Shown here: positions 35,807 through 64,000 of the stretch, piece by piece
Position numbering within the stretch: position 1 is the stretch's first letter
Layout: each line of letters begins with the position of its first letter
Assembly (NCBI GenBank): GCA_020696365.1
Contig: JAEHCM010000001.1
Location: 166,987-230,986, forward strand
Direction: 5' to 3'
Origin: Thermoplasmata archaeon
GTDB taxonomy: Archaea > Thermoplasmatota > Thermoplasmata > UBA10834
DNA: 64,000 bases
The notes under the pieces: generated by a model
The model's database searches: none
The model's input: the letters and a program-made list of their open reading frames with translations, nothing else
What the model was told of the DNA's origin: nothing
Translations under genes and position numbers: made by a program

Positions 35807-35911
35807 GCCCAAACCGATTCCTCGAGATATTGTTGATTCGTTGCAACTTCCCAGCGGAGGCTGTGCCGAGGTATGCGGCGGTTTCGACATGGGACGATTG
35901 GAGGAGTTGTC

Positions 35912-36778: not shown

Positions 36779-36779
36779 C

Positions 36780-39723: not shown

Positions 39724-40430
39724 AAGTGATACCAGCCGTGGATGTAAGGGGGGGCAAGAGCGTCCAGTTGGTCGGTGGAAAGCCTGGCACGGAGCGTGTC
39801 GAGATCGAGGATGTCGCCGGTCTGGCCAGGAAATGGCAGAGGGATGGTGCCGAGATGATACATATCATCGACCTCGACTCGGCCATGGACGTGGGGAACA
39901 ACGAGGAGCTGATCGAGAACGTGATAGGCGCTCTATCCATCCCCGTCCAGGTCGGTGGCGGCATCAGGACCGCGGCTAAGGTCCACAGGTTGTTCGAGAT
40001 CGGCTGCGAGCGGGTCATCATCGGCACCAGGGCGATCCAGGACCGCTCCTTCGTGGAAGAGCTGGCCAAGCAATACTCCGACGGTATAGTCGTCGCCCTC
40101 GATTCCGCGGCAGACCGGGTATTGATTAAGGGCTGGCAGGAGAGCTCTGGAAAGGACATAGTCTCTGTCGCCAAGGACCTGGAATCGTTCCCTATCTGGG
40201 GCTTCCTCTACACAAACGTGGATGTAGAGGGGAGGTTGCAAGGCATCAACCCGATCCCGATAAGCAGGCTCATACGGACGACGGGGAAGCCAGTGATCGT
40301 CTCAGGCGGGATATCTACCCGGTCTGACCTGGCGCTCCTCCGCGGAATGGGGGTAGATTCGGTCGTCGTAGGGATGGCTATCTACACGGGAGCGGTGAAT
40401 TTCAAGAGAGTGGTGAGGGAGTTCAGTTGA
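39720..40430 (+). CDS. hisA: ProFAR isomerase
   Basis: MKVIPAVDVRGGKSVQLVGG N-terminus and (beta/alpha)8 HisA pattern. Confidence 0.85.
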   Translation: MKVIPAVDVRGGKSVQLVGGKPGTERVEIEDVAGLARKWQRDGAEMIHIIDLDSAMDVGNNEELIENVIGALSIPVQVGGGIRTAAKVHRLFEIGCERVIIGTRAIQDRSFVEELAKQYSDGIVVALDSAADRVLIKGWQESSGKDIVSVAKDLESFPIWGFLYTNVDVEGRLQGINPIPISRLIRTTGKPVIVSGGISTRSDLALLRGMGVDSVVVGMAIYTGAVNFKRVVREFS

Positions 40431-40993
40431 ATCCAGAGGCAGTCAAGCGCTCCGCCCGGGTCGTCCGGGAGACAAGGGAGACCAGGGTGTGCGCAGAGGT
40501 GACAATAGACGGTACAGGCGACGCGAAGTGCGATATCCCGGACGAGTTCCTCAGACACATGGTCGAGACGCTTGGGAGATATTCCGGCATCGACCTGGTC
40601 ATAGAGGCCAAGGGAGATATCGATCATCACTTGATCGAGGACGTCGCGATAACCCTAGGACGTGCCTTCCGCGAGGCCATCGCCGAATCGCCCGTCAGAA
40701 GGATAGCGAACGCCGTCGTACCCATGGACGAGGCCCTCGTGCAGGTCACGGTGGATTTGATCGACCGCCCCTACGTGCATTTGGAGCTCCCTGACCAGAT
40801 GTACTCGCATTTCATAAGGTCGTTCGCGATGGAGATGCGGGCAACGATTCACACTGTGGTTGTCAGAGGAGTAGATGACCACCACATAGTCGAGGCGACG
40901 TTCAAAGCACTCGGCAGGGCCCTGGGAGAGGCGATGTCTCGTACGGAGTCGTCGGTATCGACCAAAGCCTCCGTCAAATGGGGTGTCGGCTGA
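40427..40993 (+). CDS. hisB: imidazoleglycerol-phosphate dehydratase
   Basis: IGPD motifs (RETRETRV, IDHHLIEDVAITLG, RGVDDHHIVEATFKALGRAL). Confidence 0.85.
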   Translation: MNPEAVKRSARVVRETRETRVCAEVTIDGTGDAKCDIPDEFLRHMVETLGRYSGIDLVIEAKGDIDHHLIEDVAITLGRAFREAIAESPVRRIANAVVPMDEALVQVTVDLIDRPYVHLELPDQMYSHFIRSFAMEMRATIHTVVVRGVDDHHIVEATFKALGRALGEAMSRTESSVSTKASVKWGVG

Positions 40994-41757
40994 TGCCGCT
41001 AGCGAAGAGGATCATACCTTGCTTGGACGTCCGCGACGGCGTCGTAGTCAAGGGCATTTGCTTCAAGGGACTGACGGAGGTCGGCGACCCGCCGACGCTG
41101 GCAGTGAAGTACCAGGAGCAGGGTGCGGACGAGATCGTGTTCCTCGATGTGAAAGCCTCGTTGGCAGGCGCCGAGACACTGCGTGCCGCAGTACAGAAGA
41201 CGGCCGAGCAGCTCTTCGTGCCTCTTACGGTAGGTGGGGGGATCAGGACCTTCGAAGACGTCAGGCAGATGCTTCGCGTGGGAGCAGACAAGATATCAAT
41301 CAACACCGCAGCCGTTGCGGACCCTACTCTGATTTCTAGATGTGCGGGGGCATTTGGCAGCCAGTGCGTCGTTGTCGCCGTGGATGCAAAGCGTACAGGC
41401 GACAGCTGGGAGGTTTATACTCACTCTGGGACGAGGCCTTCTGGGCGCGATGTGGTCGATTGGACGAGAGAGGTCTGTGAGTTGGGCGCAGGAGAGATAC
41501 TACTGACTAGCATGGACTGCGACGGCATGAAGAACGGGTACGACCTCGAGCTCACCCGGAGGATAGTGCGGGAGGTGAGCGTGCCCGTCATTGCCTCGGG
41601 AGGGTGCGGCAACATCGAGCATGTGACGGAGGTCCTTTCGGCAGGCGAGGCGGACGCTGCGCTCGCGGCATCGATATTCCACTATGGCCAGCACACGGTA
41701 CGCGATGTGAAGGAAGCGCTCGTTGAAAGGGGAATCCCCGTGAGGAGATGCAGCTGA
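40993..41757 (+). CDS. hisF: imidazole glycerol phosphate synthase, cyclase subunit
   Basis: RIIPCLDVRDGVVVKG start and TGATG coupling with the hisB stop. Confidence 0.85.
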   Translation: MPLAKRIIPCLDVRDGVVVKGICFKGLTEVGDPPTLAVKYQEQGADEIVFLDVKASLAGAETLRAAVQKTAEQLFVPLTVGGGIRTFEDVRQMLRVGADKISINTAAVADPTLISRCAGAFGSQCVVVAVDAKRTGDSWEVYTHSGTRPSGRDVVDWTREVCELGAGEILLTSMDCDGMKNGYDLELTRRIVREVSVPVIASGGCGNIEHVTEVLSAGEADAALAASIFHYGQHTVRDVKEALVERGIPVRRCS

Positions 41758-42332
41758 TGGCTAAGAGCGCTCTCATCCCGGTAGTCGTTCAGGACGTCAG
41801 GAACAACAATGTCCTGATGGTGGCCTTCACGAATGACGAGGCGCTCGAACTCACGAAGAAGACTGGATACATGCACTTCTGGAGCAGGTCAAGGCAGAGC
41901 ATATGGAAGAAGGGCGAGACATCAGGCAACGTCCAGAGGGTCGTGGAACTGCTGACGGACTGCGACGGAGACGCGATCCTCGCACGCGTGGAACAGACTG
42001 GTGTGGCATGCCACACAGGGACATACTCTTGCTTCTTCGACAAACCTTTGGGACAGAACGATGTCGTGTCGGAGCTGTGGAGTGTGTTCGATGAGAGGAA
42101 AGGGAGCCAGTGTGAGTCCTCCTACACCTGCCGGCTGATGAGCAATCGGAACTTACTCCTGAAGAAGATCGCTGAGGAGAGTTCCGAAGTGATACTAGCT
42201 GCAAAGGACAGGAACAGAGGTGAGGTCGTCTACGAGGCGGCCGATCTGATGTACCATCTGCTCGTGCTTCTGTACGACGAAGGCATTACGCTGGATGAGG
42301 TCTACAAGGAACTGGAGGGAAGAAGAAAATGA
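41757..42332 (+). CDS. hisIE: bifunctional phosphoribosyl-AMP cyclohydrolase / phosphoribosyl-ATP pyrophosphatase
   Basis: HisI segment (VQRVVELLTDCDGDAILARVEQTGVACHTGTYSCFF) followed by a HisE MazG-like segment (EVVYEAADLMYHLLVLL). TGATG coupling with hisF. Confidence 0.85.
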   Translation: MAKSALIPVVVQDVRNNNVLMVAFTNDEALELTKKTGYMHFWSRSRQSIWKKGETSGNVQRVVELLTDCDGDAILARVEQTGVACHTGTYSCFFDKPLGQNDVVSELWSVFDERKGSQCESSYTCRLMSNRNLLLKKIAEESSEVILAAKDRNRGEVVYEAADLMYHLLVLLYDEGITLDEVYKELEGRRK

Positions 42333-42997
42333 GGGCGAGACGTTGCGACTTCCATACGCACACGATATTCAGCGACGGAGAACTGATTCCGATGGAACTC
42401 ATTCGAAGGGCTGCTGTGGCAGACCACAGAGCGGTTGCGATAACCGATCACGCGTCGTTCTCGAGCTTAGATTGGATTATCGGGCAGGTGGCAAAGGACT
42501 GTGCCAAGGCAGACGCATGGGGGATCGACGCGATTCCCGGCGTGGAGATCACCCACGTGCCGGTCAAGTACCTTGACGAATCCATCCGTCTCGCTAGGAA
42601 GGCAGGAGCGGAGATCGTTGTCGTGCACGGAGAGACCCCGGTCGAGCCTGTGGAGAACGGGACCAACCACGCTGCGGTATCGAACCCCGATGTCGACATA
42701 CTGGCACACCCTGGAATGATGTCAGAGGATGATGCGCTCCTCGCCGCAAAGAACGAAGTGTTTCTAGAGATCTCATGTCGGAGGGGTCATTCCCTGTCGA
42801 ATGGGCATGTCGCATCGATGGCCGCGAACGCCGGGGCGAGGTTGCTCGTCAACACAGACATGCACTCCCCCGAGGACCTGAGTTCAATGGCCACCGCAAC
42901 CGCTGTCGCCAGAGGGGCGGGCCTCGATCCAGACCGGACCAGGGAAGCGCTTGTCACCAATCCTGAGACACTGCTTCGCAAGCTGGGAAGGCTCTAG
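42329..42997 (+). CDS. hisK: histidinol-phosphatase, PHP family
   Basis: PHP-domain metal ligands (CDFHTHTIFSDG, ITDHAS, VVHGETP) at the end of the his cluster. Confidence 0.7.
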   Translation: MRARRCDFHTHTIFSDGELIPMELIRRAAVADHRAVAITDHASFSSLDWIIGQVAKDCAKADAWGIDAIPGVEITHVPVKYLDESIRLARKAGAEIVVVHGETPVEPVENGTNHAAVSNPDVDILAHPGMMSEDDALLAAKNEVFLEISCRRGHSLSNGHVASMAANAGARLLVNTDMHSPEDLSSMATATAVARGAGLDPDRTREALVTNPETLLRKLGRL

Positions 42998-48130: not shown

Positions 48131-48228
48131 AGGGGGGGGTGGCTCACGAGGCGTCTTCATCTCGTTCCAGCATTTCGTGCGTGGATTCGGATATTCTTAA
48201 ATATGAACATCATTTTGGAGGTATCCAA

Positions 48229-48334
48229 GCTGAGGTAGCCCAGCCCGGTAAGGCGCGAGCCTGGAGTCTTGATGATTCAAGCCAGTCAGCTCGTGGCGCT
48301 CTGCGCCTCGGGAGTTCAAATCTCCCCCTCAGCG
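48229..48334 (+). tRNA. tRNA-Ser (anticodon GGA) with a 21-nt intron after position 37
   Basis: Acceptor GCTGAGG/CCTCAGC with discriminator G, 3-bp D-stem, anticodon stem CGAGC/GCTCG with loop CTGGAG-[intron]-A, long variable arm GGCGC-TCT-GCGCC, and T-arm GGGAG-TTCAAAT-CTCCC. Confidence 0.75.
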
Positions 48335-48400
48335 CCTTGTCATATCTTGCTGTTCTCGTGTGGACTGGAAGATTCATACGCGGAACGCAGATTTGCGATG

Positions 48401-48408
48401 TTATAAAA
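48401..48408 (+). promoter_or_regulatory. putative TATA box (TTATAAAA) for the receiver/kinase gene
   Basis: AT-rich octamer about 50 nt upstream of the ATG at 48460, immediately downstream of tRNA-Ser. Confidence 0.3.
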
Positions 48409-48459
48409 TACCCCCCCAGGCTATGGCTATTTCGGTCGGTTCGAAAGGATTTGAAATGG

Positions 48460-48756
48460 ATGAGCGACCCTGAGATCAATGTTCTGCTTGTGGACGACGA
48501 GCCCGAGTTCGCGGAGCTCGTGCATTTCTTTCTAGGCAAGCAACACGATATCACCGTTCATTCGACGAACACTGTCACGAAAGCGCTAGAAATGATTGAT
48601 ACGACGGAGTACGACGCCATTGTGTCCGACTACATGATGCCCGAGATTAACGGCATAGACTTCCTGAAAATACTGAGGGCAAAAGGCAGTTCGATCCCCT
48701 TCATCCTCCTGACGGGTCGGGGGAGGGAGGATGTCGCCGTCCAGGCCCTTAACTAG
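48460..48756 (+). CDS. response-regulator receiver domain truncated by an in-frame TAG
   Basis: NVLLVDDEPEF ... DAIVSDYMMPEINGIDF ... ILLTGRG ... AVQALN then TAG. The stop falls where the receiver alpha4-beta5 GADxY element normally follows. Confidence 0.6.
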   Translation: MSDPEINVLLVDDEPEFAELVHFFLGKQHDITVHSTNTVTKALEMIDTTEYDAIVSDYMMPEINGIDFLKILRAKGSSIPFILLTGRGREDVAVQALN

Positions 48757-51851: not shown

Positions 51852-51972
51852 GTCCACGGGATATCTGGTCGTTCCACATGAACTTTGTCTGGAGAACAGG
51901 TTGGTTAGTGCCCCGGTTTGGCCAAAAAGGTTATAATGGCCGACCATTTTCGAACGCTTGCGGGAGAGCGAG

Positions 51973-53019
51973 ATGCCGAAGATAACCATGGCTCAGGGAG
52001 CTGGCGGGGAGAGGATGCAGGAGTTCATCCGTGAGTTCGTGCTGAAAGAGCTTGAGCACGATTTCGGAGATATTCCGCTGGGAGCCCTCGACGACGCCGC
52101 AGTTGTCGATGGCATCGTGTTCACCACTGACTCATACACCGTCAAACCGTTGTTCTTCCCCGGAGGCGACATCGGCACGCTGGCGGTGGCTGGTACTGTC
52201 AATGACGTCTCCGTCATGGGTGCGACGCCCATAGCGCTGTCGTGCGGAATGATAATCGAGGAGGGGTTCTCCGAGGACGACCTTCACCGTGTCATGAGCA
52301 GCCTGAACAGAACCTCAAGATCGGCAGGTGTGAGGATAGTCACGGGCGATACCAAGGTGGTTGAGAAAGGCGCGGTCGATGAATTGTTCATAAATACGAG
52401 CGGGATCGGGAGACGTTCTATCCACCTCGACGCGAATCTGGAGCGTGTCCGTGCTGCGCGGGAATTTCTATGGGATTGGCCAAACGACTCGGGAGTCGCT
52501 GATGGCGACGTTCTCATCGTCTCGGGATCGATAGGCAACCACGGGGTCGCACTACTGTCATTCCGTGAGGGATATGGGTTCGAAACCGAGGTCCAGACCG
52601 ATGCGGCTCCCTTGAACCACCTGACCGAGTCAGCGGTGAAGGTCGGAGGCGTAGTCGCGATGAAGGATCCCACGCGGGGTGGCCTGGCAAATCTCCTGAA
52701 CGAATGGGCCGAGAAGTCCAAGGTAGGTCTCGTCGTGCGAGAAGAAGATATCCCTATCGACGACCCCGTCCTGGCTGCGTGCGAGATGCTGGGCATCGAC
52801 CCTCTCGAGATTGGAAACGAGGGCAAGGTCGTCCTGGCGGTGGTGCCCGATGCGGCTGAGGAAGTCCTGAAGGTGATCAGGAAGACTCCGGAGGGATCGA
52901 ACGCGCGAATCTTTGGCAGAGCCTCGAAAGACGTCGAGGGCGTACTGCTAGAGACGCAGACCGGGGGGAAGCGGTTGGTCGAGCCTCCCGTGGGAGACCC
53001 CGTCCCGAGGATATGCTAG
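51973..53019 (+). CDS. hypE: [NiFe] hydrogenase maturation protein HypE
   Basis: AIR-synthase-related fold, N-terminal ITMAQGAGG, C-terminal PRIC tail typical of HypE. Confidence 0.8.
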   Translation: MPKITMAQGAGGERMQEFIREFVLKELEHDFGDIPLGALDDAAVVDGIVFTTDSYTVKPLFFPGGDIGTLAVAGTVNDVSVMGATPIALSCGMIIEEGFSEDDLHRVMSSLNRTSRSAGVRIVTGDTKVVEKGAVDELFINTSGIGRRSIHLDANLERVRAAREFLWDWPNDSGVADGDVLIVSGSIGNHGVALLSFREGYGFETEVQTDAAPLNHLTESAVKVGGVVAMKDPTRGGLANLLNEWAEKSKVGLVVREEDIPIDDPVLAACEMLGIDPLEIGNEGKVVLAVVPDAAEEVLKVIRKTPEGSNARIFGRASKDVEGVLLETQTGGKRLVEPPVGDPVPRIC

Positions 53020-53033
53020 CGGTCTATGCCGAT

Positions 53034-53522
53034 TTAATCATCTGAGACGAACTCTGATACGATCCTATCCACAATGGATGGGATGGCGGCTGCGACCGGA
53101 GGGGTCATGCTCTCGCTGACGTTCACGATGTCGTCGGCCTCGATGGCGACGAAGAAGACCTCCTTCGGCATCTTCTCCGGCACGATCTTTCTCCCCATAG
53201 CAAGCGCCGTCGCAATGTTGATGCCGTGAGGCGACGACCCGTGCACGGTCCTCTCGAACGCACTCTCTTCGAGCACATGGAATTCCCCTGGTCTCCCCTC
53301 GTCCGTCACGATGGCGTCCACGATGACCACTCTGTCGTAGCCCAGAACCATGTCCAGAAGCTCCAAACCGCTCGCGGGCAGCTCCTCCACATCCACGCCT
53401 TCGAGCCCGAGGTCCCTGAGCTTTCTCGCAACGTGAATGCCCACACCATCATCGGAGAGTATCGGGTTACCGACGCCCACTATCAACGTCCGGGGACGAT
53501 GCCGTTCATCAGAGATGCTCAT
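53034..53522 (-). CDS. hydrogenase maturation endopeptidase (HycI/HyaD/FrhD family)
   Basis: LIVGVGNPILSDDGVGIHV N-terminus and conserved Asp/His metal ligands. Confidence 0.8.
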   Translation of the reverse strand: MSISDERHRPRTLIVGVGNPILSDDGVGIHVARKLRDLGLEGVDVEELPASGLELLDMVLGYDRVVIVDAIVTDEGRPGEFHVLEESAFERTVHGSSPHGINIATALAMGRKIVPEKMPKEVFFVAIEADDIVNVSESMTPPVAAAIPSIVDRIVSEFVSDD

Positions 53523-53594: not shown

Positions 53595-55109
53595 TCAGAA
53601 GTTTCTCACGGTCTTCAGCTTCGACCCGTCGGCGCGTCTCACGTTTATCTCAAGGGCCGGAGAGCCGTTCAGAGCGTGTGTTCCGCAGGAGTTGCATGGG
53701 TCGTAGCATCGGAACGCCATCTCGACCTTGTTCAGCAGTCCTTGGGAGACTTCGCCGTTCTTGATCAAGGCCTTCGCCGCCTGCACGACGCTCGTGTTGA
53801 TCGCAGCGTTGTTGTTCGTCGTCGCTACGATCATGTTGATCTTCGTGCATAGCCCGTCCTTGTCCGAGGCGTAGTGGTGTATCAGCGTACCTCTGGGAGC
53901 TTCGCATATGCCCACGCCTTCCGTCGGCTCCTTGAACTCGCCTCGGGTGTCATCGCTCGTTATGACATCGTCGGTGACCAGCTCGAGCATCCTCTCCGTA
54001 GCGTGCTGCAGCTCGATCACCCTCGCCCAGTGGAACGCGAGCGTGTGATGGACTGGTCCTGTCACTCCCAAGTCCTTCACGGTCTTGGCCAATGCCTCGT
54101 ACTCCGCCTGTGCGAGAGGGGTTGTGTAGCCCTCGCAGACGTTTATCCTGCCGAGGGGTCCGACCCTGTATATCCCGCTTGACGGGCCTGTGGTGAAACC
54201 GTTCCAGCCGACGCTCTTCAGATATGGCATCTTCATGTATGACCACGGTTCGACGTGCTCGGCGATGACGTCGAGATACTCGCTCGGCTTGAACTTGACG
54301 ACCTCCTTGCCGGCCTGGTCGACGACCCGTATGTCTCCGTCGTAGAAGTTGCTCTTGTTGTCCTTGTCGACCATGCCCATGTAGTATGTCTCGAGGTAAT
54401 ACGCGTCCTGGTTCAGGATGAGTCCGAGGTAGTCCTGGTTGGCCAGCACGACATCGTGGAACAGCTTCGTCGTGAACTTGCCGAACTCGACGCACGACCT
54501 GGCCATCTCCTCCATCTGAACGCGCTCCTCCTCGCTTATCTGCTTCGAGACGCCGCCGGGTAGGCCAAAGCACGGATGCGTGGCCCTCCCTCCGACGATC
54601 TCCTGCACCTTCTGACCATACGAGCGGTGCTTGATGACCTCTGCGCCGATCTCGACGCCGACGGCATCCACCACTCCCAGGATATTCCTCTTGTTGGATG
54701 GCGCTGACGGTCCCAGCACGAAGTCGGGCGCTGCGAGCGCGTAGAAGTGTGCTATGTGGCTGTGGGTGTACTGTCCCATGTAGAACAGCTCTCTCAGTTT
54801 TGTCGCCGTTTCCGTCGGGGTGGCGTCGAACACCGCGTCAAGCGTCTTGGTCGACGCTATGTGATGCGCGGCCGGGCAGACGCCACACAGCCGGTTGGTG
54901 ATTATGGGCAGTTCCTGCACATGTCTGCCGATGCAGAACCTCTCGAAGCCTCTGAGTTCAGGAACTTGCCAGTAGGCGTTGGCCACGTTCCCCTCGTCGT
55001 TCAGGAAGATCTCGATCTTGCCGTGTCCTTCGAGCCTCGTGACCGGGTCGATCGTGAGTTTCTTCTCGGTCGTCTTGGTTGTCGTATCGTTGATTATCGG
55101 TCCGGACAT
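53595..55109 (-). CDS. mvhA: [NiFe] hydrogenase large subunit (Mvh/Vht-type, F420-non-reducing)
   Basis: N-terminal RLEGHGKIEI, proximal CxxC (RLCGVCPAAH) and C-terminal DPCNSCGTH Ni ligands, plus a C-terminal extension. Confidence 0.85.
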   Translation of the reverse strand: MSGPIINDTTTKTTEKKLTIDPVTRLEGHGKIEIFLNDEGNVANAYWQVPELRGFERFCIGRHVQELPIITNRLCGVCPAAHHIASTKTLDAVFDATPTETATKLRELFYMGQYTHSHIAHFYALAAPDFVLGPSAPSNKRNILGVVDAVGVEIGAEVIKHRSYGQKVQEIVGGRATHPCFGLPGGVSKQISEEERVQMEEMARSCVEFGKFTTKLFHDVVLANQDYLGLILNQDAYYLETYYMGMVDKDNKSNFYDGDIRVVDQAGKEVVKFKPSEYLDVIAEHVEPWSYMKMPYLKSVGWNGFTTGPSSGIYRVGPLGRINVCEGYTTPLAQAEYEALAKTVKDLGVTGPVHHTLAFHWARVIELQHATERMLELVTDDVITSDDTRGEFKEPTEGVGICEAPRGTLIHHYASDKDGLCTKINMIVATTNNNAAINTSVVQAAKALIKNGEVSQGLLNKVEMAFRCYDPCNSCGTHALNGSPALEINVRRADGSKLKTVRNF

Positions 55110-55115: not shown

Positions 55116-56129
55116 TCACCCCTTCCTCTTGCGTTCCTTCACAGTCCTCTTGAGGAGGGACTTGGGGAGCGTGAAGGCGTAGAAAGTCCCGATCGGGTCT
55201 TTCACCTGCATCATAAGTTCTATTATCTGCTCCTCACTTAACTTTGACTCCGAATCCGTGATGTTGAGGATCGAAGCTAGCGCGCTCAGCATGCTACCTC
55301 CGTGGTCCATAACGGCCTTCGTCGGGCCCATGCAACCCCTACAGGGCATGTTGGCGACCGGGCACATCGCACCACAGCCCGCGCGCGTCGCGGGCCCTAT
55401 GCATATTATACCCTGGTCCAACAGGCACTTCTTAGGGTCGGCCTTGATCTCATAAGCCTGATAGATCCTGTCGATCCTCCGGTCCGTCTCGACCCGTTCC
55501 CGGTCGCATTCGTCGCAGAGCGTCTTGTCGGATGCGATGACAGTGCCCTTCGGCGGCAGAGGCGCCCCCTCCTTCACGTGCTTCAGGACAGCGCCGACTG
55601 CCACCATGATGAGGTCGACCGTAGGCGGACAACCGGGCATGAAGTAGTCGACATCTACGACCTCGTCAAGGGTCTTCACGGTGTCGTAGAATTCCGGCAG
55701 GGTCAACTCTCCCTCTGGCACCTTCACACTCGTCTGCGGCGTCACGAATTCGGGATTGTCGGTCGACTCGGTGTCCTTGTAGACTGTCTGGAACACCTCC
55801 TCCTTGTTCGTCACATTCGCGAGGCCCGGCGTCCCGCCGAAGCATGCGCACGATCCGAAGCTTATCATTATGACGGACTTCTCCCTCAGCACCTTCGCGA
55901 CATGTTCGTTCTCGCTGTTCCTTATCGCTCCGTTGTAGAACGCTACCGTGATTGACTTGTCCGGCATCTGCTCCAATTCGTGTAGCTTGCCGTCGAAGCC
56001 TATCGGCCAGAACACCACCTCGGCTATGGCGTGCAAATCCAGTATACTTGCGTCTATGTCCAGGAGCGCGACGTCGCATCCCCCGCAGCCCGCGCCCCAG
56101 TACTGCGCAATCTTGATCTTATCTGCCAT
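55116..56129 (-). CDS. mvhG: [NiFe] hydrogenase small subunit (F420-non-reducing type)
   Basis: YWGAGCGGCDVA N-terminal cluster motif, FGSCACFGG, and distal cluster cysteines. Confidence 0.85.
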   Translation of the reverse strand: MADKIKIAQYWGAGCGGCDVALLDIDASILDLHAIAEVVFWPIGFDGKLHELEQMPDKSITVAFYNGAIRNSENEHVAKVLREKSVIMISFGSCACFGGTPGLANVTNKEEVFQTVYKDTESTDNPEFVTPQTSVKVPEGELTLPEFYDTVKTLDEVVDVDYFMPGCPPTVDLIMVAVGAVLKHVKEGAPLPPKGTVIASDKTLCDECDRERVETDRRIDRIYQAYEIKADPKKCLLDQGIICIGPATRAGCGAMCPVANMPCRGCMGPTKAVMDHGGSMLSALASILNITDSESKLSEEQIIELMMQVKDPIGTFYAFTLPKSLLKRTVKERKRKG

Positions 56130-56131: not shown

Positions 56132-56515
56132 TCAGCTCACCTCCTTGGTTGAAGCGTCACTCCTCGGTACCGCCTTGTACTGCGGCGACTGTCCAGTCAT
56201 GCCGACCTGCTCGATCAGCCTCCACCGCTTGAGGGCTATTATGTGCCTGACTATCTCGGGCTTCGGCAGGCCTGTCGCGTCGTGCAGTTCGTGCACGGTC
56301 TGCGGACTGGCTTCCATCTGCAGTAGGAGCATGTTCCTCTCGAGCTCCACTGCCGCGGCCTTCTGCAGTATGAAACTGTATCGCCCGTCGGTGATCGTCT
56401 CCCCGAACACGTTTTCCTCAGTGGTCAGCGAGCCCTTCTTTCCGAGCAGCCAACGTATCCTCTCTCCCTCGAGAGTCCTCAGCGCTGCGTGTATCTTGAC
56501 CTCTCTCGGGTTCAT
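56132..56515 (-). CDS. small wHTH-like protein co-transcribed with mvhD (unknown function)
   Basis: 127 aa; homologous to the C-terminal domain of the MvhD-fusion protein at 60014..60310 (LLLQMEASPQTVHELHDATGLPKPEIVRHIIALKRWRLIEQ versus LILELARIRPISVKQLGMVMEVPTDRILRHIVLLRQNSMIAME). Confidence 0.5.
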   Translation of the reverse strand: MNPREVKIHAALRTLEGERIRWLLGKKGSLTTEENVFGETITDGRYSFILQKAAAVELERNMLLLQMEASPQTVHELHDATGLPKPEIVRHIIALKRWRLIEQVGMTGQSPQYKAVPRSDASTKEVS

Positions 56516-56517: not shown

Positions 56518-56979
56518 TCAGTCACCACCTCTCATGGGGGACGGTCCGATCTCCTCAATCGTCTTCGTGAACTCGACCATCGTCTTCTGGAACTTCTCGC
56601 CCTCTCCGGCCGAGATCCACTCAAGCCTCAGCCTGTCAGGGTCATATCCGAACTGCTGGAGGAGTATCCTCAGAAGCGCGATCCTCCTGCGGGTCCTGTA
56701 GTTGCCTCCTATGTAGTGGCAGTCCGCCGGATGGCAGCCTGCGACCAACACGCCGTCGGCCCCTTTCTGGATCGCCCTCAGGACGAACTCCGGGTCCACT
56801 CTCGCGGAGCACATTACCCTTATCACCCTGAAGTGCGGGGGCATCTGCATCCTGCTGACACCCGCCAGGTCCGCGCCTGCGTAAGAGCACCAGTTGCAGC
56901 AGAACACGATTATCTTCGGCTCGAAGTCCTCGCCCTCGGCCTTCTCCTCGCTCTGGGCGCTCGGCGTTGTGCTGCTCAT
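56518..56979 (-). CDS. mvhD: MvhD (methyl-viologen-reducing hydrogenase delta subunit, [2Fe-2S])
   Basis: CCNWCSY...RVMCSARV...AGCHPADCHY pattern of MvhD. Confidence 0.85.
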   Translation of the reverse strand: MSSTTPSAQSEEKAEGEDFEPKIIVFCCNWCSYAGADLAGVSRMQMPPHFRVIRVMCSARVDPEFVLRAIQKGADGVLVAGCHPADCHYIGGNYRTRRRIALLRILLQQFGYDPDRLRLEWISAGEGEKFQKTMVEFTKTIEEIGPSPMRGGD

Positions 56980-59900
56980 TGCTTCACCTCCTGGTTCTCC
57001 GCGGCATCCTCAAGCGCCGCGTCTATCATCGCCACAATCTGCTCGTCACTGAAGCCCATCTGTGTTAGCGCTCCAGATGGACATGCGCCCACGCACGCTC
57101 CGCAGCCCTTGCACAGGCCCACGTTGATATCGAGGGTCTTCTTCTTCTCGTCCTTTTTGTCGGGGACGATCTCGAGCGCCTTGTACTCGCACGTCGGGAC
57201 ACATATGCCGCAGCCGTCGCAGAGCGTCTCGTCGAGGAACGCGACGATGCCCTCCGCCTCGAGGGTCGTCTTCGACAGTACGGTCATCGCGCGCGATACG
57301 GTGGCCAGACCCTGTCCGATGCACTCGTCCAGGAACTTCGGCCCGTGCGCCAGACCGGCGACGTACACTCCCTCCGTGGCGAAGTCGACCGGCCTGAGTT
57401 TCATGTGCGCCTCAAGGAAGAATCCCTCCTTCGTAATGGGCACCTTCAGCATCGGCGCGAGCTCCTCGGAGCCGTCACTCGGCCGCGTGCCTGCGGCGAG
57501 CACCAGGTTGTCAGGCGTGAGCACGACCTCCTTGCCAGTGTCCTCGTCCGTCACGCGCACCTCGATCTTGCCGCCCTTGTCCTCGACCTGCGGCTTGGTG
57601 CCGTCTTCGAACCTTATGAAGGTCACGCCCTTCTCGGCAGCCTCTTTGTAGTACTTCTCGCGGAAGCCGTAGGTCCTGATGTCCCTGTAGAGAACGAAGA
57701 CCTTCGCATCGGGGTCCTTCTCCTTCACCTTGATCGCCGCGGTCATCGTGCCCGTGCAACACACGCGCGAGCAGTTCGGATGGCCTTCCTCACGCGAGCC
57801 GACGCACTGTATGAACGCGTACGAGTCTCCCTTGACCTCGCCCTTCTTGAGCTTGTCCTTGAACTCGAGCAGGGTCATCACGCCGGGGTTTTTGCCGTAG
57901 AGGTACTCGCCATCCGGCTTGTACTCCTGCGCCCCAACGGCGACTATGACCGTGCCGTGCTCCATCTCCTCGCCGGACTCGAGCGTCGTCTTGAAGTTGC
58001 CGACATACCCGTCGATGCTCTTGACCTTCTTGCCGGTGTAGACAGTTATGTTCGGGTCGGAGGCGACCTCCTTCGCGAGCGACTGGACGTACTCCACCGG
58101 GTCGTCCCCGGACGGGAGGTAGTGCAGCTTCAGCAGGGTGCCGCCCAGCTCTTTCTCCTTCTCGACCAGATGAACCTTGACGCCCTGCTTCGCCAGCTCG
58201 AGCGCCGCCACCATGCCGGACGCGCCTCCGCCGACCACGAGCGCCTGCTGGTTGACATTGATTGTCAGGTTCTCCAGCGATTCCAGCAACCTGGACTTCG
58301 CAACGGCCATGCGCACGAGATCCTTCGCCTTCTTCGTCGCAGCTGCGGGTTCGTGCATGTGTATCCACGAGCATTGGTCCCGTATGTTCGCCATCTCGAA
58401 CAGGTACGCGTTGAGCCCGGCCTCCTTGATGGTGTTCTGGAACAGCGGCTCGTGCGTCCTGGGCGTGCAGCTCGCGACGACGACCCTGTTCAGGTTGTGC
58501 TCCTTCACCATCTGTTTGATCTTCTCCTGCGTGTCCTGCGAGCAAGTATACAGGTTCTCCTCCGCATACACGACGTTCGGAAGGGACCTCGCGTACTCAG
58601 CCACCGACGGCACCTTGACGACGCCGCCTATGTTGATCCCGCAGTGACACACGAACACGCCTATCCGCGGCTCCTGCTCCGAGACGTCTATCTCGGCAGG
58701 ATACTCCTTCTTCGTGACGAGCGTGTCCCTGGCAGATGCGATCTCGGACGCGGCCTTCGCCGCCGCCCCGCTCGCCTCCGCGACTGTCATCGGGATGTCC
58801 TTCGGCGACGAGAACGCGCCACTGACGAACACTCCCGGACGGGATGTGCTGACAGGGGTGAACGCCCCGGTCTCGCAGAAACCGTCGTCGTTCAGGCTGA
58901 AATTCATGACCTTGCTGAGCGCCTCGGCGTCCTCCGGAGGCCTCAGGCCCACTGCGAGCACGACCAGCCCGAACTCCTCCTCCTTGGGCTCCCCCTTCTC
59001 CACGTACTTGAGTATCAGGTTCTTCGTCTTCGGGTCCTCGAACACGGATGCAACCCTGGAACGGACGAACTCGATGCCGTACTCGTCCTTGGCCCTGTTG
59101 TAGTACTCCTCGAATTCCTTGCCGAAGGCCCTCATGTCCATGAAGAATATCTTGGGCTTGATGTTCCCGCCATGCTCCTTGGCTATGATGGCCTCCTTGA
59201 TGGAGTACATGCAGCAGACGCCGGAACAGTACTCGTTGCCGACCTTCTCGTCCCTCGAGCCGACGCATTGTATGAACGCTATCTTCTCGGGTATGTCCCC
59301 GTCCGAAGGTCTCATGACCGTGCCGAAGTGCGGTCCTGTGGCGCTGAGTATCCTCTCGAACTCGATGCTCGAGACGACGTTCTGGTACACGCCGTACCCG
59401 TACTCCGCCTTGAGCCTCGCGTCGAACTCGTCGAAGCCAGGCGATACGATGATCGAGCCGACCTTGATCTCGAAGTCCTTCTCCTTCTGATCGTATTCGA
59501 CCGCGTCGGCCTTGCACTCCTCCGCGCATATGCCGCAGCCGATGCACTTCTCCGGGTCGATCGAGTAGATGAGGGGCACTGCCTGCGGGTACTTGACGAA
59601 TATCGCCTTCCGCACCTTCGTGTTCTCGTTGTACTCGTCAGTCGTCTCTATCGGACACTTCTGGGCGCAGCTACCACAGCCCGTACATTTCGAGGCGTCC
59701 ACTCTGAGCGCCCTCTGCTTGCCGGTCACCGTGAAGTTGCCCTCCTGTCCGTCGACTTTGACGATGTCCGCGTTCGTTATCAGATCGATGTTGTGGTGCC
59801 TCCCGGTCGCGACGAGCTTCGGCGCCATGATGCACATGGCGCAGTCGTTCGTCGGGAAGGTCTTGTCGAGCTGGGCCATCGCGCCGCCTATGCTCGGTTG

Positions 59901-60017
59901 CTTCTCGACCAGGTATACTTTGAACCCTGAGTCGGCCAGGTCGAGCGCCGACTGCAGGCCTGAGATGCCGCCTCCGACGACCATGACCGCTCCAATCTTG
60001 TCAGTAGCTGCCATCAC
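56976..60017 (-). CDS. hdrA: tandem HdrA-like flavoprotein (QmoA-like FAD/ferredoxin module fused to a complete HdrA)
   Basis: 1013 aa. The N-terminal half is an HdrA FAD domain (VVGGGISG, DKTFPTNDCAMC, two inserted CxxCxxCxxxCP) lacking the N-terminal Cys cluster. Then a complete HdrA: VFVCHCGINIGG, second FAD site VVGGGASGMVAA, CSRVCCTG, and C-terminal 2x[4Fe-4S]. Confidence 0.8.
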   Translation of the reverse strand: MMAATDKIGAVMVVGGGISGLQSALDLADSGFKVYLVEKQPSIGGAMAQLDKTFPTNDCAMCIMAPKLVATGRHHNIDLITNADIVKVDGQEGNFTVTGKQRALRVDASKCTGCGSCAQKCPIETTDEYNENTKVRKAIFVKYPQAVPLIYSIDPEKCIGCGICAEECKADAVEYDQKEKDFEIKVGSIIVSPGFDEFDARLKAEYGYGVYQNVVSSIEFERILSATGPHFGTVMRPSDGDIPEKIAFIQCVGSRDEKVGNEYCSGVCCMYSIKEAIIAKEHGGNIKPKIFFMDMRAFGKEFEEYYNRAKDEYGIEFVRSRVASVFEDPKTKNLILKYVEKGEPKEEEFGLVVLAVGLRPPEDAEALSKVMNFSLNDDGFCETGAFTPVSTSRPGVFVSGAFSSPKDIPMTVAEASGAAAKAASEIASARDTLVTKKEYPAEIDVSEQEPRIGVFVCHCGINIGGVVKVPSVAEYARSLPNVVYAEENLYTCSQDTQEKIKQMVKEHNLNRVVVASCTPRTHEPLFQNTIKEAGLNAYLFEMANIRDQCSWIHMHEPAAATKKAKDLVRMAVAKSRLLESLENLTINVNQQALVVGGGASGMVAALELAKQGVKVHLVEKEKELGGTLLKLHYLPSGDDPVEYVQSLAKEVASDPNITVYTGKKVKSIDGYVGNFKTTLESGEEMEHGTVIVAVGAQEYKPDGEYLYGKNPGVMTLLEFKDKLKKGEVKGDSYAFIQCVGSREEGHPNCSRVCCTGTMTAAIKVKEKDPDAKVFVLYRDIRTYGFREKYYKEAAEKGVTFIRFEDGTKPQVEDKGGKIEVRVTDEDTGKEVVLTPDNLVLAAGTRPSDGSEELAPMLKVPITKEGFFLEAHMKLRPVDFATEGVYVAGLAHGPKFLDECIGQGLATVSRAMTVLSKTTLEAEGIVAFLDETLCDGCGICVPTCEYKALEIVPDKKDEKKKTLDINVGLCKGCGACVGACPSGALTQMGFSDEQIVAMIDAALEDAAENQEVKQ

Positions 60018-60880
60018 TGCTCACCTCCGATCTCGATGGTCTTGTAGAGCGGTGTGAACCCCTCCGGGTGCTCCATCGCGATCATGCTGTTCTGTCTGAG
60101 TAGGACGATGTGCCTGAGTATCCTGTCCGTGGGTACCTCCATGACCATGCCCAGCTGTTTCACCGATATGGGTCTTATCCGTGCCAACTCGAGTATCAGC
60201 GCCCTCTCGAATTCCTCCTCCGTTGCGACATCTATGATGCCGCTGAGTTTCTCGGGATCGAGCTTGTCACCGTACGCGTTCCCCTTGCTGAGGAGGTTGA
60301 ACTCCTTCCCAACCAGGGCCTTCAATCTGAAAGTCTCGGAGGCGTCGTCAGCGGCTGCGACCTTCGCCTTCATCATATCATCCGTGTGTATCTTGCTCGG
60401 TCCTAGTTTCTGGATCTCCTCGGTGAATTCCGTTACGACCTTGGAGAACTTCTCTCCCTCGGACGCCGAGACCCATTCGAGCCTCAGCCGCCCTTCGTCG
60501 ACCCCCGCTTCTCTGAGCAGCCTCTTCATCAGGTTCACGCGCTTCTCCGTGTGGTAATTGCCCGTCATGTAGTGACAGTCGTTCAGGTGACATCCTCCGA
60601 TGAGGATGCCGTCGGCACCAGCCTCGAAGACTTCGAGTACAATGTGTGGGCTCACCCTCGTGGAGCACATCACCCTGACGAGGCGGATGTTCGTCGGATA
60701 CTGGAACCTGCTGACGCCGCATAGGTCGGCGCCTGCGTACGAGCACCAGTTGCAGAGGAAGCCGACGATCTTCGGCTCCCATTCCTTGTCGGCCTCGGCC
60801 TTCTTCTTGCCGTGATGAGCGGTGTGATGCTTCTCCGTCATGTCCTCACACCTCCTCCAAGGCCGCTTTTGCCTCCGCAA
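60014..60880 (-). CDS. MvhD-like [2Fe-2S] protein fused to a C-terminal wHTH-like domain
   Basis: N-terminal FLCNWCSY...RVMCSTRV...GGCHLNDCHY (MvhD) with a C-terminal domain of about 100 aa homologous to the ORF at 56132..56515. The likely start is the internal Met at 60841. Confidence 0.75.
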   Translation of the reverse strand: MRRQKRPWRRCEDMTEKHHTAHHGKKKAEADKEWEPKIVGFLCNWCSYAGADLCGVSRFQYPTNIRLVRVMCSTRVSPHIVLEVFEAGADGILIGGCHLNDCHYMTGNYHTEKRVNLMKRLLREAGVDEGRLRLEWVSASEGEKFSKVVTEFTEEIQKLGPSKIHTDDMMKAKVAAADDASETFRLKALVGKEFNLLSKGNAYGDKLDPEKLSGIIDVATEEEFERALILELARIRPISVKQLGMVMEVPTDRILRHIVLLRQNSMIAMEHPEGFTPLYKTIEIGGEQ

Positions 60881-62720
60881 GCAGCTGCTGATCGGTGTAA
60901 TGTGTCATGGTGATGGCACCCTCCGGGCAAGTGGCACCGCAACAACCACAGCCCTTGCACGCTGCGACGATCACCTCGGTGATACCCTCTTCGTTCTTCC
61001 TCAGGGCGCTGTATGGGCACGTTTCGACGCATGTCCCGCAGCCAGTGCACTTCGTCTCGTCGACTATTGAAGTGAGCGCCTCGGCCTGGACGAACCCGTT
61101 CGCAAGAGGTATCGATGCCCTCGAGGCAGCAGCAGCAGCCTGAGAGACGGCCTCCGAGATGTCGGCCGGTCCTCTGCAAGTCCCGCAGACGTACACTCCA
61201 TCGGTCGCGAAGTCCACCGGTCTCAGCTTGACATGCGCCTCTTGGAAGAAGCCGTCTTGTCCGAGCGGGACCTTCAGCAGCTGCGATAGTGTGGCAGCGT
61301 CTGGCTGGGCCACGAGCGGAGTCGAGAGTATGACCAAGTCAACGGGCATCGTCCTCTCCATCTTCAGCGTCTCGTGGAAGTATCCGACCTCGAGCTTTCC
61401 GTCCTTAACGGATACCTTCGGAAGGTTGTCCGGTAGGTATCTGACGAACTTGACTCTCTTCTCCCTAGCCTTGTTGAACTCGAGCTCGTGTTCGACGCCG
61501 TACGACATGACGTCCCTGTTGAACACCGTGACCTCGACACCACTGGACGGAGCGGCCTCCTCGCCGGCCTCATCCTCGTCACCTCGGCCTCTGCCCCGCC
61601 TTCTTCGCCTTCTGTCAGACCCCTCTTCCTCCGCCTTCTTCTCGGCGGCGGGTTCTTCCACGACCTCTCCTGTCTCCGCTGCCTTCTCCTCGGTCACGCC
61701 GAGCATGTTGTCGCGATTCTCGGCAATGTTTATCGCGCTCTTGATCGCGACGTTGCAGCAGACCCTGGAGCAGTATGAGACCTTCTGCCCTCTCGCGCCA
61801 ACGCATTGTATGAAAGCGACGCTCTTCAGCTTGGGCAGTTCCTTCTTGTTGCAGAGCTCCTCGAACTCTGTGGATGTGATGACGTTCGGGTGTTCCTTGT
61901 ACCCGAACAACCCCTCGGGTACCAGCGGGACCGCGCCCGTGGCCACGATGATGGTGCCAACCTTGACTTCTTTGGCCTCAGCCCCGTCCCCTCCTATGGA
62001 GATATCATAGTTGCCTATGAACCCCTCCACCGATGCGACGTGCGAGTTGAGGTGCTGTGTGATGTTCTTGTGGGCGTTCACCTTGTCGATGAGTGGCTTG
62101 ATCGTCTCGTTGGCGCTCTTGGTGGTCATCATGAGGCCGTGCAGGTTCTTCACGAACCCTCCGAGCTCCTCGTCCTTCTCGACGAGGTGCACCGGGAATC
62201 CCATGTTCGCCAGCGACAGCGCTGCCGTCATCCCGGACACGCCGCCTCCGACGACGAGCGCGGTGGGCGTAACATCGACCTTCGTCTCCTCCTGGGGCTC
62301 CAGGAATCGGGCTCTCGCAACACCCATCCTGACCAAGTCCTTCGCCTTCTGGGTCGCCTTCTCCTTCTCTTTCATGTGGACCCACGAGCAGTGCTCACGG
62401 ATGTTGACGAACGTGAACATGTACTTGTTCACGCCAGCAGCCTCGCATGTCCGTTGGAAGAGAGGGGCGTGCGTCCTGGGTGTGCAGCTCGACACTATCA
62501 CTCTGTCGAGGTTGTGTTCCTTGATGCTATCCTTGATGTTGTTGAGACCGTCCTCGGCACATGTGTAGAGGTTGTCCGCTGCGTACGCAACGTCCGGGAG
62601 GGTTGACGCATACTCGGTCACGGCCTTCACATCGACAAAGCCGCCTATGTTGGACCCACAGTGGCAGATGAATACTCCGATCCGTGGTTTCTCCTTCTCG
62701 GTGCTTGTGTTCTCGGGCAT
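60846..62720 (-). CDS. hdrA: heterodisulfide reductase subunit A-like flavoprotein
   Basis: VFICHCGSNIGG N-terminal Cys domain, FAD site LVVGGGVSGMTAA, CSRVCC, and C-terminal ferredoxin CTGCGTCVETCP ... CKGCGCCGATCP. Carries a low-complexity insertion around 61535..61715. Confidence 0.85.
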   Translation of the reverse strand: MPENTSTEKEKPRIGVFICHCGSNIGGFVDVKAVTEYASTLPDVAYAADNLYTCAEDGLNNIKDSIKEHNLDRVIVSSCTPRTHAPLFQRTCEAAGVNKYMFTFVNIREHCSWVHMKEKEKATQKAKDLVRMGVARARFLEPQEETKVDVTPTALVVGGGVSGMTAALSLANMGFPVHLVEKDEELGGFVKNLHGLMMTTKSANETIKPLIDKVNAHKNITQHLNSHVASVEGFIGNYDISIGGDGAEAKEVKVGTIIVATGAVPLVPEGLFGYKEHPNVITSTEFEELCNKKELPKLKSVAFIQCVGARGQKVSYCSRVCCNVAIKSAINIAENRDNMLGVTEEKAAETGEVVEEPAAEKKAEEEGSDRRRRRRGRGRGDEDEAGEEAAPSSGVEVTVFNRDVMSYGVEHELEFNKAREKRVKFVRYLPDNLPKVSVKDGKLEVGYFHETLKMERTMPVDLVILSTPLVAQPDAATLSQLLKVPLGQDGFFQEAHVKLRPVDFATDGVYVCGTCRGPADISEAVSQAAAAASRASIPLANGFVQAEALTSIVDETKCTGCGTCVETCPYSALRKNEEGITEVIVAACKGCGCCGATCPEGAITMTHYTDQQLLAEAKAALEEV

Positions 62721-62726: not shown

Positions 62727-64000
62727 TCACCCTCCTCCTGAATTGGCGAGGACTTCCGCTGCCTTGGCAGCCGCACTCGATCCCTGGGCAACGGATTCCG
62801 GGATGTCGGCCGGTCCTGCGCAATATCCCGCGAGGTATATCCCGGGCAGGTCGCTCTTGCCGAAGTCCAGGATGCTGTCGGGAGACTCGAAGAAACCGAA
62901 TTCCGTTAGCTTCAACCCGAGCTTCTTCGCCAGTTCGATAGTGTCCTTCCTGGGAACGAGCGTCGTCGCGAGCACGACTGCGTCGAACTCCTCCGTCTGC
63001 TGCTTGCCCCCCACGTCGAAGACGACCACCGGATTGTTGGTCTCCGCGTTCTCCTGTACGGTTGCATCGGAGTTGATGTAGCTGACTCCGTAATCGCTCT
63101 TAGCCCTCTCGATGTACTCGTTGAAGCCTTTCGCGCAGGCCCTCATGTCCTTGTAGAATATCGTCGAATTGGCGTCTTCATAGTGTTCCCTGGCGAGCAT
63201 AGCCTCCTTTGTGGCATGCATGCAGCACACCGAACAGCAATAGGGATGCCCCACCTGCGGGTTTCTCGATCCGACGCACTGGATGAACGCCAGTTTCTTC
63301 GGATGCTCCCCATCGGATCGCCTCACTATGTGTCCTCCAGTGGGTCCCGAGGCGTTGATCATACGCTCATACTCCATCGCCGTGTAGACGTTGGGATACT
63401 TCTTGTAGCCGTACTCTGAGGCGGATGTCGGGTCCCACACATCGAAGCCCGTGGCGACTATGACCGCCCCCGGATTCAGCGTTACGACCTGGTCCTTCAT
63501 GTTGTAGTCGATGGCATTGGGGCCACACGCAATGGCGCACGCCTCGCACTGGGAGCACGGTCCGCAGTTCACACATCGAGCCGCCTCCTTGAGCGCCTCC
63601 TCCTTCGTGAACACCCTCTCGACCTCCTCGAAAGAGGTCTTGCGCTTATCATCCGGAATGTGTTGCCTGAGGACACGCTCGCTCTTCGGGATATCTCCGT
63701 CCATTCGCGCCTTGATGTCTTCGAGCGTGATCACATGCTCATTCTTCTCCTCTGGTTCCGGCTCGATGCTCTCCCCGTTCAACGACTTCTCGATGTATCG
63801 AGCGGCCTTGTTGCCAGCCGCGAACGCCTCGACAGCCGACGCGGGTCCTGAAACGGCATCTCCGCCTGCGAAGACGCCTGGGATGTTGGTGCTTAGGTTG
63901 CCGGGGTTGACCTCCAGGGTCTTCCACTTCGTGACCGCTAGATCCTTCGAGCCAAGGGCGTCCAGGTCCGGCGCCTGGCTCACTGCTGGGATGACCGTGT
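62727..64000 (-). CDS. partial (5' end beyond window): HdrA/QmoA-like FAD-ferredoxin module preceded by an NAD(P)H-oxidoreductase-like C-terminal GD motif
   Basis: The visible part has GVFAGGDAVSGPASAVEAFAAGNKAARYI (end of a pyridine-nucleotide-disulfide oxidoreductase fold), then CVNCGPCSQCEACAIACGP, then an HdrA-like FAD domain (AFIQCVGSR ... YCCSVCCM). The frame stays open to the window edge. Confidence 0.6.
   Translation of the reverse strand, partial: TVIPAVSQAPDLDALGSKDLAVTKWKTLEVNPGNLSTNIPGVFAGGDAVSGPASAVEAFAAGNKAARYIEKSLNGESIEPEPEEKNEHVITLEDIKARMDGDIPKSERVLRQHIPDDKRKTSFEEVERVFTKEEALKEAARCVNCGPCSQCEACAIACGPNAIDYNMKDQVVTLNPGAVIVATGFDVWDPTSASEYGYKKYPNVYTAMEYERMINASGPTGGHIVRRSDGEHPKKLAFIQCVGSRNPQVGHPYCCSVCCMHATKEAMLAREHYEDANSTIFYKDMRACAKGFNEYIERAKSDYGVSYINSDATVQENAETNNPVVVFDVGGKQQTEEFDAVVLATTLVPRKDTIELAKKLGLKLTEFGFFESPDSILDFGKSDLPGIYLAGYCAGPADIPESVAQGSSAAAKAAEVLANSGGG

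Follow-up and report, generated by a model that had tools for sequence, protein, structure and literature searches.

What does a winged helix do on an MvhD adaptor? The question arises from a minus-strand gene cluster that, according to the list of open reading frames (ORFs) and their Pfam domains, occupies the final 11 kb of the window analysed here, a stretch of 64,000 nucleotides (nt) from a Thermoplasmata archaeon (contig JAEHCM010000001.1). One mvhD gene of this cluster carries a C-terminal winged-helix (WH) extension, and a second mvhD is followed directly by a free-standing gene for a related protein. We consider it probable that this module of about 115 amino acids (aa) serves the MvhD adaptor as an accessory docking element for protein-protein contacts within HdrA-based complexes of flavin electron bifurcation, and that it is not a transcription factor. 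The genes and domains at issue are as follows.

60014..60841, minus strand: mvhD-WH fusion gene, 275 aa, with a ribosome-binding site (RBS) and an ATG at 60841; the mechanically derived ORF 60014..60880 encodes 288 aa from a TTG.
60401..60769, minus strand: MvhD [2Fe-2S] adaptor domain of the fusion, residues 38-160 of the 288-aa ORF (Pfam FlpD, 5.9e-53).
60032..60379, minus strand: WH module of the fusion, residues ~168-283 (BLASTP, E = 8e-13; family profile, 1.9e-38).
56518..56979, minus strand: second mvhD, 153 aa, without extension (Pfam FlpD, 2.5e-55).
56132..56515, minus strand: free-standing WH gene, 127 aa, no cysteine (BLASTP to the fusion, Pfam, AlphaFold2, synteny).

Translation of the fusion gene most likely begins with the ATG at 60841, which lies behind a GGAGGAGGTG RBS, 4 nt past the stop codon of the upstream hdrA-like gene. 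The TTG start of the mechanical ORF (60880) overlaps that upstream gene by 35 nt, and we take the 275-aa product to be likelier than the 288-aa one.

The initial annotation had proposed that the C-terminal domain of the fusion, put there at about 100 aa, is homologous to the 127-aa ORF. Pairwise BLASTP of the 288-aa against the 127-aa ORF bears out the shared domain (50.1 bits, E = 8e-13): residues 171-282 of the fusion align to residues 5-116 of the free protein over 112 columns without gaps, with 29% identity and 52% positives. The size had been set too low, as the module measures about 115 aa (window ~60032..60379). The 153-aa MvhD shares 55% identity with residues 23-168 of the fusion (E = 1e-62). 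Because both parts align to the fusion, the 153-aa MvhD and the 127-aa ORF together are collinear with the single chain, and the boundary between the two genes coincides exactly with the boundary between the two domains. The two ORFs do not share a reading frame, and the second starts at an ATG behind an RBS of its own; this is a real two-gene arrangement and no sequencing artifact. Joining of mvhD to the 127-aa ORF by read-through or frameshift was considered and rejected on the same grounds, and also because the split is kept in 40 loci from different assemblies. When the window proteins were searched with the family profile, only the fused and the free copy were found. A weak match to a diverse WH profile at 20104..20475 (plus strand; E = 0.0017), confined to the winged helix-turn-helix (wHTH) part, probably represents an unrelated winged-helix regulator.

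Is the shared domain a generic fold or a particular companion of MvhD? Searched exhaustively with a profile of the module, 1.84 billion cluster representatives yielded only 255 relatives at E <= 1e-3 and 123 at E <= 1e-10. Domain architectures were counted in the best 150 of the 255 relatives. MvhD lies directly N-terminal of the module in 72 of these 150, including HdrA-MvhD-WH chains of 417-810 aa; a further 70 are short proteins (free forms or fragments), and eight are longer proteins without MvhD, three of which have two copies of the module. Proteins P0131 (756 aa), P0142 (516 aa), and P0169 (364 aa) contain a double WH module and no detectable MvhD or HdrA domain. A search with the full-length fusion yielded more than 120 further 90%-identity clusters of MvhD-WH proteins of 257-261 aa, one of them named Bathyarchaeota. 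A word-index search with the diverse WH profile gave only 29 proteins and added little on taxonomy, and tblastn against plasmids turned up nothing beyond a plain MvhD in Ilyobacter, in which 48% of the query is covered and the WH part is missing. Judged by these matches, the WH module is a small and specific family rather than a generic helix-turn-helix (HTH), and it appears to accompany MvhD/HdrA genes in many archaea and some bacteria. The Rosetta-stone pattern pointed out in the initial annotation, fusion in one unit and adjacency in the other, thus extends to the family as a whole, in which nearly half of the counted relatives are fused to MvhD and the free members adjoin mvhD or hdrA in every context inspected. 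Neither a lack of similarity between the two segments nor a generic fold unlinked to mvhD emerged from the alignment and the family search. In public annotation the free form is called an 'ArsR family transcriptional regulator', and several fusions bear the Joint Genome Institute (JGI) label 'coenzyme F420-reducing hydrogenase delta subunit/predicted transcriptional regulator'.

The MvhD part of both copies is conventional. The FlpD profile (PF02662) matches the fusion with 178.5 bits (cut-off 22.3) over profile positions 1-123 of 123 and the 153-aa copy with 186.2 bits, likewise over the full profile, and both window copies contain the motif CNWCSY. In an alignment of 19 diverse MvhD-WH fusions, C43, C72, C97, and C102 are invariant; by analogy with solved MvhD structures, these four cysteines are assumed to be the [2Fe-2S] ligands. 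Foldseek alignments place the N-terminal 130 aa of the fusion and the 153-aa MvhD at 51-55% identity to solved MvhD chains. The MvhD part of the AlphaFold2 model superimposes on 5odh_D with a root mean square deviation of 1.2 Å and a template modeling (TM) score of 0.93, the corresponding ranges for 5odh_D, 8rvu_F, and 7bkb_F being 1.2-1.3 Å and a target TM of 0.92-0.95. The module had been described initially as foreign to the textbook Mvh/Hdr complex, and this agrees with the solved MvhD chains, every one of which comprises 129-141 aa and lacks it; a Foldseek search of the PDB with the fusion model retrieved no solved chain covering both the MvhD and the WH part.

Many public gene calls for MvhD-WH proteins begin too late, at 'MCSGRVDP' or similar. 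In the late-called genes L058:953-1756, L059:9881-10660, and L059:13749-14657 the real N-termini lie upstream, with one TTG start and ATG in the others. Selenocysteine was considered for MvhD-WH proteins and rejected, as upstream translation in L059 and L058 gave an intact CNWCSY and ordinary starts, not an in-frame TGA.

How firmly is the module embedded among the genes of the complex? The surrounding genes of the cluster are listed here in the direction of transcription, with the neighboring hypE at the end.

62727..64000, minus strand: HdrA N-half-like gene (Pfam Pyr_redox_2 and Fer4_20).
60846..62720, minus strand: HdrA-like protein of C-terminal-half type, 624 aa, directly upstream of the fusion gene (Pfam, synteny).
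56976..60017, minus strand: tandem (duplicated) HdrA-like flavoprotein, 1013 aa (Pfam Pyr_redox_2 in three stretches, NAD_binding_8 twice, Fer4 four times).
55116..56129, minus strand: mvhG, [NiFe]-hydrogenase small subunit, 337 aa (Pfam Oxidored_q6).
53595..55109, minus strand: mvhA, [NiFe]-hydrogenase large subunit, 504 aa (Pfam NiFeSe_Hases).
53034..53522, minus strand: HycI-like hydrogenase maturation protease, last gene of the cluster (Pfam HycI).
51958..53019, divergent to the cluster: hypE.

From the first hdrA-like gene through mvhA, all junctions are 1-7 nt or overlapping, and a GGAGG-type RBS precedes every gene. The 127-aa ORF, placed directly downstream of the second mvhD in the initial annotation, indeed lies there, between mvhD and mvhG: the stop codon of mvhD is followed by GG and the ATG of the WH gene, and the WH stop by the ACATG of mvhG. 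The gaps to its neighbors are 2 and 5 nt, and it has a GGAGG-type RBS of its own. Pfam assigns two FAD/NAD-binding regions and several 4Fe-4S domains to the 1013-aa HdrA. The HdrA N-half-like gene is truncated by the window end, its frame being open past base 64000 with no in-frame stop at the edge; its homolog in locus L001 comprises at least 594 aa. The window cluster has no hdrB or hdrC, and its free WH gene fills the slot between the last mvhD and mvhG that corresponds to the hdrC-hdrB slot in the Bathyarchaeota-type clusters L054-L056.

When genomes were scanned, one for each species, 46 loci were found, all of them in Thermoplasmata-type metagenome-assembled genomes (MAGs), including Methanomassiliicoccales-like ones; ORFs in the loci of relatives were labelled by comparison with the window proteins. 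The closest relatives are MAGs of Thermoplasmata, and the source of the window is accordingly an uncultured member of this group. The order mvhD-WH-mvhG-mvhA is present in all 40 Thermoplasmata loci that cover the site, and the full order hdrA(N)-hdrA(C)-[mvhD-WH]-tandem hdrA-mvhD-WH-mvhG-mvhA-hycI, with the fused gene in brackets, was found wherever the contig was long enough. In the window, in 31 Thermoplasmata loci, and in Bathyarchaeota-type and other loci (L047, L054-L056, and L059), the fused mvhD-WH is always followed by a tandem hdrA of about 1000 aa. In L014, L030, L044, L054, and L059 this pair is repeated two or three times running, as if it were a modular building block.

Outside this arrangement the contexts vary. 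In the Bathyarchaeota-type loci, pairs of mvhD-WH and tandem hdrA precede mvhD(146)-hdrC-hdrB-mvhG-mvhA, and in L056 a second cluster on the opposite strand ends in mvhD(143) and a free WH gene of 112 aa. In L050 and L052, distant free members directly precede hdrA-hdrC-hdrB, at a distance of 0-2 nt. Two tandem hdrA genes flank one fusion in a cluster that includes an AsrAB-like NAD(P)H module but lacks a hydrogenase, and L057, which looks bacterial because genes for bacterial-type ribosomal proteins L21p and L27 are nearby, shows the order hdrA, mvhD-WH, NfnB-like gene. Given these varied contexts, the constant neighbor of the module is MvhD and/or HdrA, and not the hydrogenase.

Over 35 loci, the median identity of the free WH protein to the window copy is 74%, the corresponding medians being 80% for MvhD, 84% for MvhG, 85% for MvhA, 81.5% for tandem HdrA, 75% for HypE, and 68% for HycI. 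By this measure the free WH protein is under strong purifying selection and evolves like an enzyme component.

Comparative genomics of cultured Methanomassiliicoccales described an unusually long HdrA with two FAD sites, encoded beside mvhDGA (PMC4153887). Table 6 of that study gives hdrA, mvhD1, mvhG, and mvhA of these organisms with consecutive accession numbers; consequently, the annotation of these strains shows no additional gene between mvhD and mvhG. The MAG loci L036-L040, labelled Methanomassiliicoccales-like, do carry the free WH gene.

Does the fold of the module tell what it binds? The module consists of a helical N-terminal part with the signature RxRWLxGK...GNV[YF]GE, followed by a winged helix. 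A winged helix had been suspected in the initial annotation from the pattern (I/V)RHI(V/I)xL(K/R), and the domain matches and models agree with it: the free 127-aa ORF scores 26.3 bits with HTH_IclR and 22.9 bits with HTH_5 in Pfam, marginally above the cut-off of 22 for each, and the pattern itself falls within the recognition helix, the second of the predicted wHTH (residues 85-97 of the free protein). For the fused copy, Pfam gives nothing apart from FlpD. No Pfam model spans the whole module; diverse members yield scattered weak wHTH matches, 34 of 70 matching HTH_5 weakly (E <= 0.01).

AlphaFold2 models were evaluated by predicted TM score (pTM) and predicted local distance difference test (pLDDT) only, so that domain packing in them is a model-level hint. 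The free protein, modelled with 120 homologs (pLDDT 87.4, pTM 0.79), is predicted to have three short helices, a long helix (residues 43-69), the HTH (74-81 and 85-97), a two-stranded wing (101-107 and 110-115), and a disordered tail. In the model of the 288-aa fusion chain (128 sequences; pLDDT 83.2, pTM 0.82) the corresponding elements are helices 168-181, 184-191, 193-198, and 209-235, the HTH at 240-247 and 251-263, and the wing at 267-281. In neither model is there any helix after the wing, such as the ArsR α5. Foldseek searches of the PDB with the free WH model returned ArsR/SmtB proteins, HlyU, NolR, and Zalpha, all of them weak matches (best E = 1.7e-3, query TM ~0.45), and the family profile gave the same ArsR/SmtB-type picture against PDB sequences.

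Conservation across 70 diverse members peaks in the N-terminal part and not in the HTH, namely at R19-x-R21-W22-L-x-G25-K26 and in the loop G34-N35-V36-[YF]37-G38-E39; other conserved positions are E57, R60, I63, P71-x-S73-V74, V88-L89-x-H91, L95, and P111-x-Y113. In 10-residue blocks, the mean pLDDT of the GNV[YF]GE loop is ~88 in the fusion model versus ~70 in the free protein. This better order in the fusion would fit packing of the loop against MvhD, though only as a hint. Neither window copy of the module contains cysteine, and the mean in the 120-member free subfamily is 0.03 per protein. A role as a DsrC/TusE-like thiol carrier was rejected for this lack of cysteines. The free-standing Thermoplasmata subfamily is basic, with a median isoelectric point (pI) of 9.75 and a net charge of about +5; the family overall is slightly acidic (median pI 6.3).

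A full-text literature search for MvhD together with winged helix, helix-turn-helix, or ArsR yielded one relevant paper, a preprint on BamF. In the cryo-electron microscopy structure of the class II benzoyl-CoA reductase of Geobacter metallireducens (PDB 29QY), the MvhD adaptor BamF exceeds the known ones by more than 100 aa; its wHTH interfaces with BamI, and BamF connects the input module BamGHI with BamE, 'a fused HdrA dimer'. The contact with BamI demonstrates by experiment that a wHTH of this kind can act as an interface between proteins (bioRxiv 10.64898/2026.04.10.717634). The window fusion resembles BamF in that its MvhD domain is followed by a C-terminal extension of over 100 aa with a wHTH in it (residues 161-288 of the 288-aa ORF) and, by gene adjacency, in its partner, a fused double HdrA, the 1013-aa HdrA corresponding to BamE. 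This likeness is one of described architecture, and it suggests that the extensions may be homologous. BamF differs in having selenocysteine at the CNWC position, where both window copies have cysteine, and in its HydBC-like input module BamGHI, which contrasts with the [NiFe] hydrogenase MvhAG in the window; moreover, in the window the module also exists as a separate polypeptide. Canonical MvhD/VhuD/FlpD proteins (PF02662) of the Mvh-Hdr, Fdh-Hdr-Fmd, and Elp-Hdr complexes share the MvhD part (51-55% identity, 1.2-1.3 Å) and differ in having neither the C-terminal module nor a separate WH subunit.

How could the module act within such a complex? The operon contains two paralogous units, paired here on the model of the bamE-bamF gene order, the gene order alone being ambiguous as to whether the upstream or the downstream hdrA belongs to a given mvhD. 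Unit 1 would comprise a split tandem HdrA (62727.. and 60846..62720) followed by the single-chain MvhD-WH, and unit 2 the fused tandem HdrA of 1013 aa with MvhD and WH after it, made as separate but translationally coupled chains, beside the MvhGA hydrogenase. MvhD would carry the [2Fe-2S] relay from an electron-input module, here the [NiFe] hydrogenase MvhAG, to the HdrA flavoprotein. The WH module would be physically incorporated into the complex without binding DNA, packing on MvhD and thereby providing a second surface that clamps the adaptor onto a neighbor, either the tandem HdrA or the input module; such clamping would fix the geometry, or the permitted swing, of the relay. The contacted partner could be the tandem HdrA, the input module, as BamI is for BamF, or MvhD itself.

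Several points weigh against a docking role. The wHTH half exceeds the Pfam cut-offs for ArsR/IclR-type DNA-binding HTHs, the nearest solved folds are DNA-binding repressors and Zalpha, and the free Thermoplasmata subfamily is basic, which would suit a nucleic-acid binder. The module is missing from the MvhD that adjoins mvhGA in Bathyarchaeota-type clusters. Because canonical Mvh-Hdr complexes work without it, the module is not needed for MvhD function as such. Physical contact itself is suggested by fusion, by synteny, and by a single precedent compared by description only.

The main rival explanation would make the module a genuine ArsR/SmtB-like DNA-binding domain, the free 127-aa protein autoregulating the hdr/mvh operon and the fusions tethering the regulator purely for co-expression, an explanation that we regard as unlikely. 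With ArsR/SmtB proteins (HTH_5, HTH_20) the module does share an HTH and β-wing core and the hydrophobic pattern VLxHxxxL of the recognition helix. The profile matches of the free ORF, marginal though above threshold, the weak HTH_5 matches of about half of the diverse members, the exclusive resemblance of structural and PDB sequence matches to ArsR/SmtB, HlyU, NolR, and similar proteins, the basic pI of the free subfamily, and the public annotation all point the same way. However, none of the structural matches is better than E = 1.7e-3, and the module differs from ArsR/SmtB in its extra conserved N-terminal subdomain with the GNV[YF]GE loop, in the predicted absence of the C-terminal dimerization helix α5 after the wing, and in the lack of cysteines or other metal/thiol sensor ligands. 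Its gene lies in mid-operon between two structural genes with gaps of 2 to 5 nt, and half of the family is fused to, and other members are embedded next to genes for, components of redox enzymes, the fusions being to the Fe-S adaptor of large complexes and including HdrA-MvhD-WH chains. Conservation is highest outside the HTH, the family overall is slightly acidic, and the wHTH of BamF contacts a protein, BamI (bioRxiv 10.64898/2026.04.10.717634).

The upstream regions of related operons also bear on autoregulation. About 130 nt upstream of the first hdrA gene, seven loci (L007, L010, L011, L012, L033, L035, and L045) share a conserved AACGAAACAGATAA box resembling a B recognition element (BRE) and TATA box, followed after ~15-20 nt by TTACGGAA; the box is probably the operon promoter, with a long leader. 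A cursory look, not decisive on DNA binding, revealed no obvious conserved palindromic operator in these upstream regions, which speaks against the ArsR-like explanation as far as it goes. The window equivalent of this promoter region lies beyond base 64000.

Alternatively, the module might be an effector-binding or allosteric regulatory subunit that tunes electron flow beyond mere docking. DsrD, a small wHTH protein of dsr operons that is fused to DsrB in some organisms, activates DsrAB and does not act on DNA. The WH module resembles it, by analogy only, as a small wHTH within a redox-enzyme operon, DsrD being free in some organisms and fused to a catalytic subunit in others. The evidence for association with the complex fits allosteric control as well as docking, and the conserved residues R19, R21, K26, N35, E39, E57, R60, H91, and Y113 could form a recognition site for a ligand or partner. 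Yet DsrD has a different partner enzyme and no detectable relationship to the module, the best 50 Foldseek matches including no DsrD structure; neither a ligand-binding motif nor a cofactor site could be recognized, and the sole structural precedent, BamF, describes an interface role. An allosteric function seems unlikely to us. Of the two roles that the initial annotation had offered, a regulatory or scaffolding subunit, the evidence favors scaffolding or docking over regulation.

Very unlikely, and purely speculative, is PutA-like moonlighting, in which a structural part that is released or reshaped with the redox or assembly state then binds DNA: an intact ArsR-like HTH and a basic free form do coexist with strict MvhD/HdrA linkage, but no operator was identified and the fused forms cannot leave the complex. 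The corresponding switch, highly improbable in our view, would have the MvhD-bound module dock the relay to the tandem-HdrA core and the free basic form leave the complex and bind DNA; if it were true, the load on the electron-bifurcating hydrogenase would be coupled directly to transcription of its own operon.

The remainder of the window offers a few observations apart from the mvhD cluster. The tRNA genes at 7959..8056 (97 nt) and 48229..48334 (106 nt) are longer than a standard tRNA, and introns are therefore probable. The second of them is contained in the 5' portion of the mechanical ORF 48139..48756. In the product of this ORF the response-regulator domain begins only at residue 115, and the gene probably starts downstream of the tRNA. 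At 35873..42997 (plus strand) lies a complete-looking histidine biosynthesis operon with hisG, hisD, hisC, hisH, hisA, hisB, hisF, hisIE, and a PHP-domain gene that may encode the histidinol phosphatase. This operon is ordinary housekeeping context.

In methanogens, sulfate reducers, degraders of aromatic compounds, and many uncultured archaea, flavin-based electron bifurcation centers on HdrA/MvhD modules. The wiring of this core to its different input and output modules is a question for structural biology, and a conserved docking module would help to predict the composition of complexes from genomes. The WH module is specific to MvhD/HdrA as their companion, widespread, and for the most part unannotated; one recent structural precedent for it is already known, and it accompanies MvhD whenever MvhD is paired with a tandem HdrA, be it fused, split off, or placed before hdrA. 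A docking function would correct the widespread mis-annotation of the free form as 'ArsR' and of the fused form as 'delta subunit/predicted transcriptional regulator'. The 127-aa protein and the 275-aa fusion, each with a good AlphaFold2 model, are defined targets for structural biology, and our analysis suggests that the group 3c hydrogenase of Thermoplasmata has an unrecognized extra subunit.

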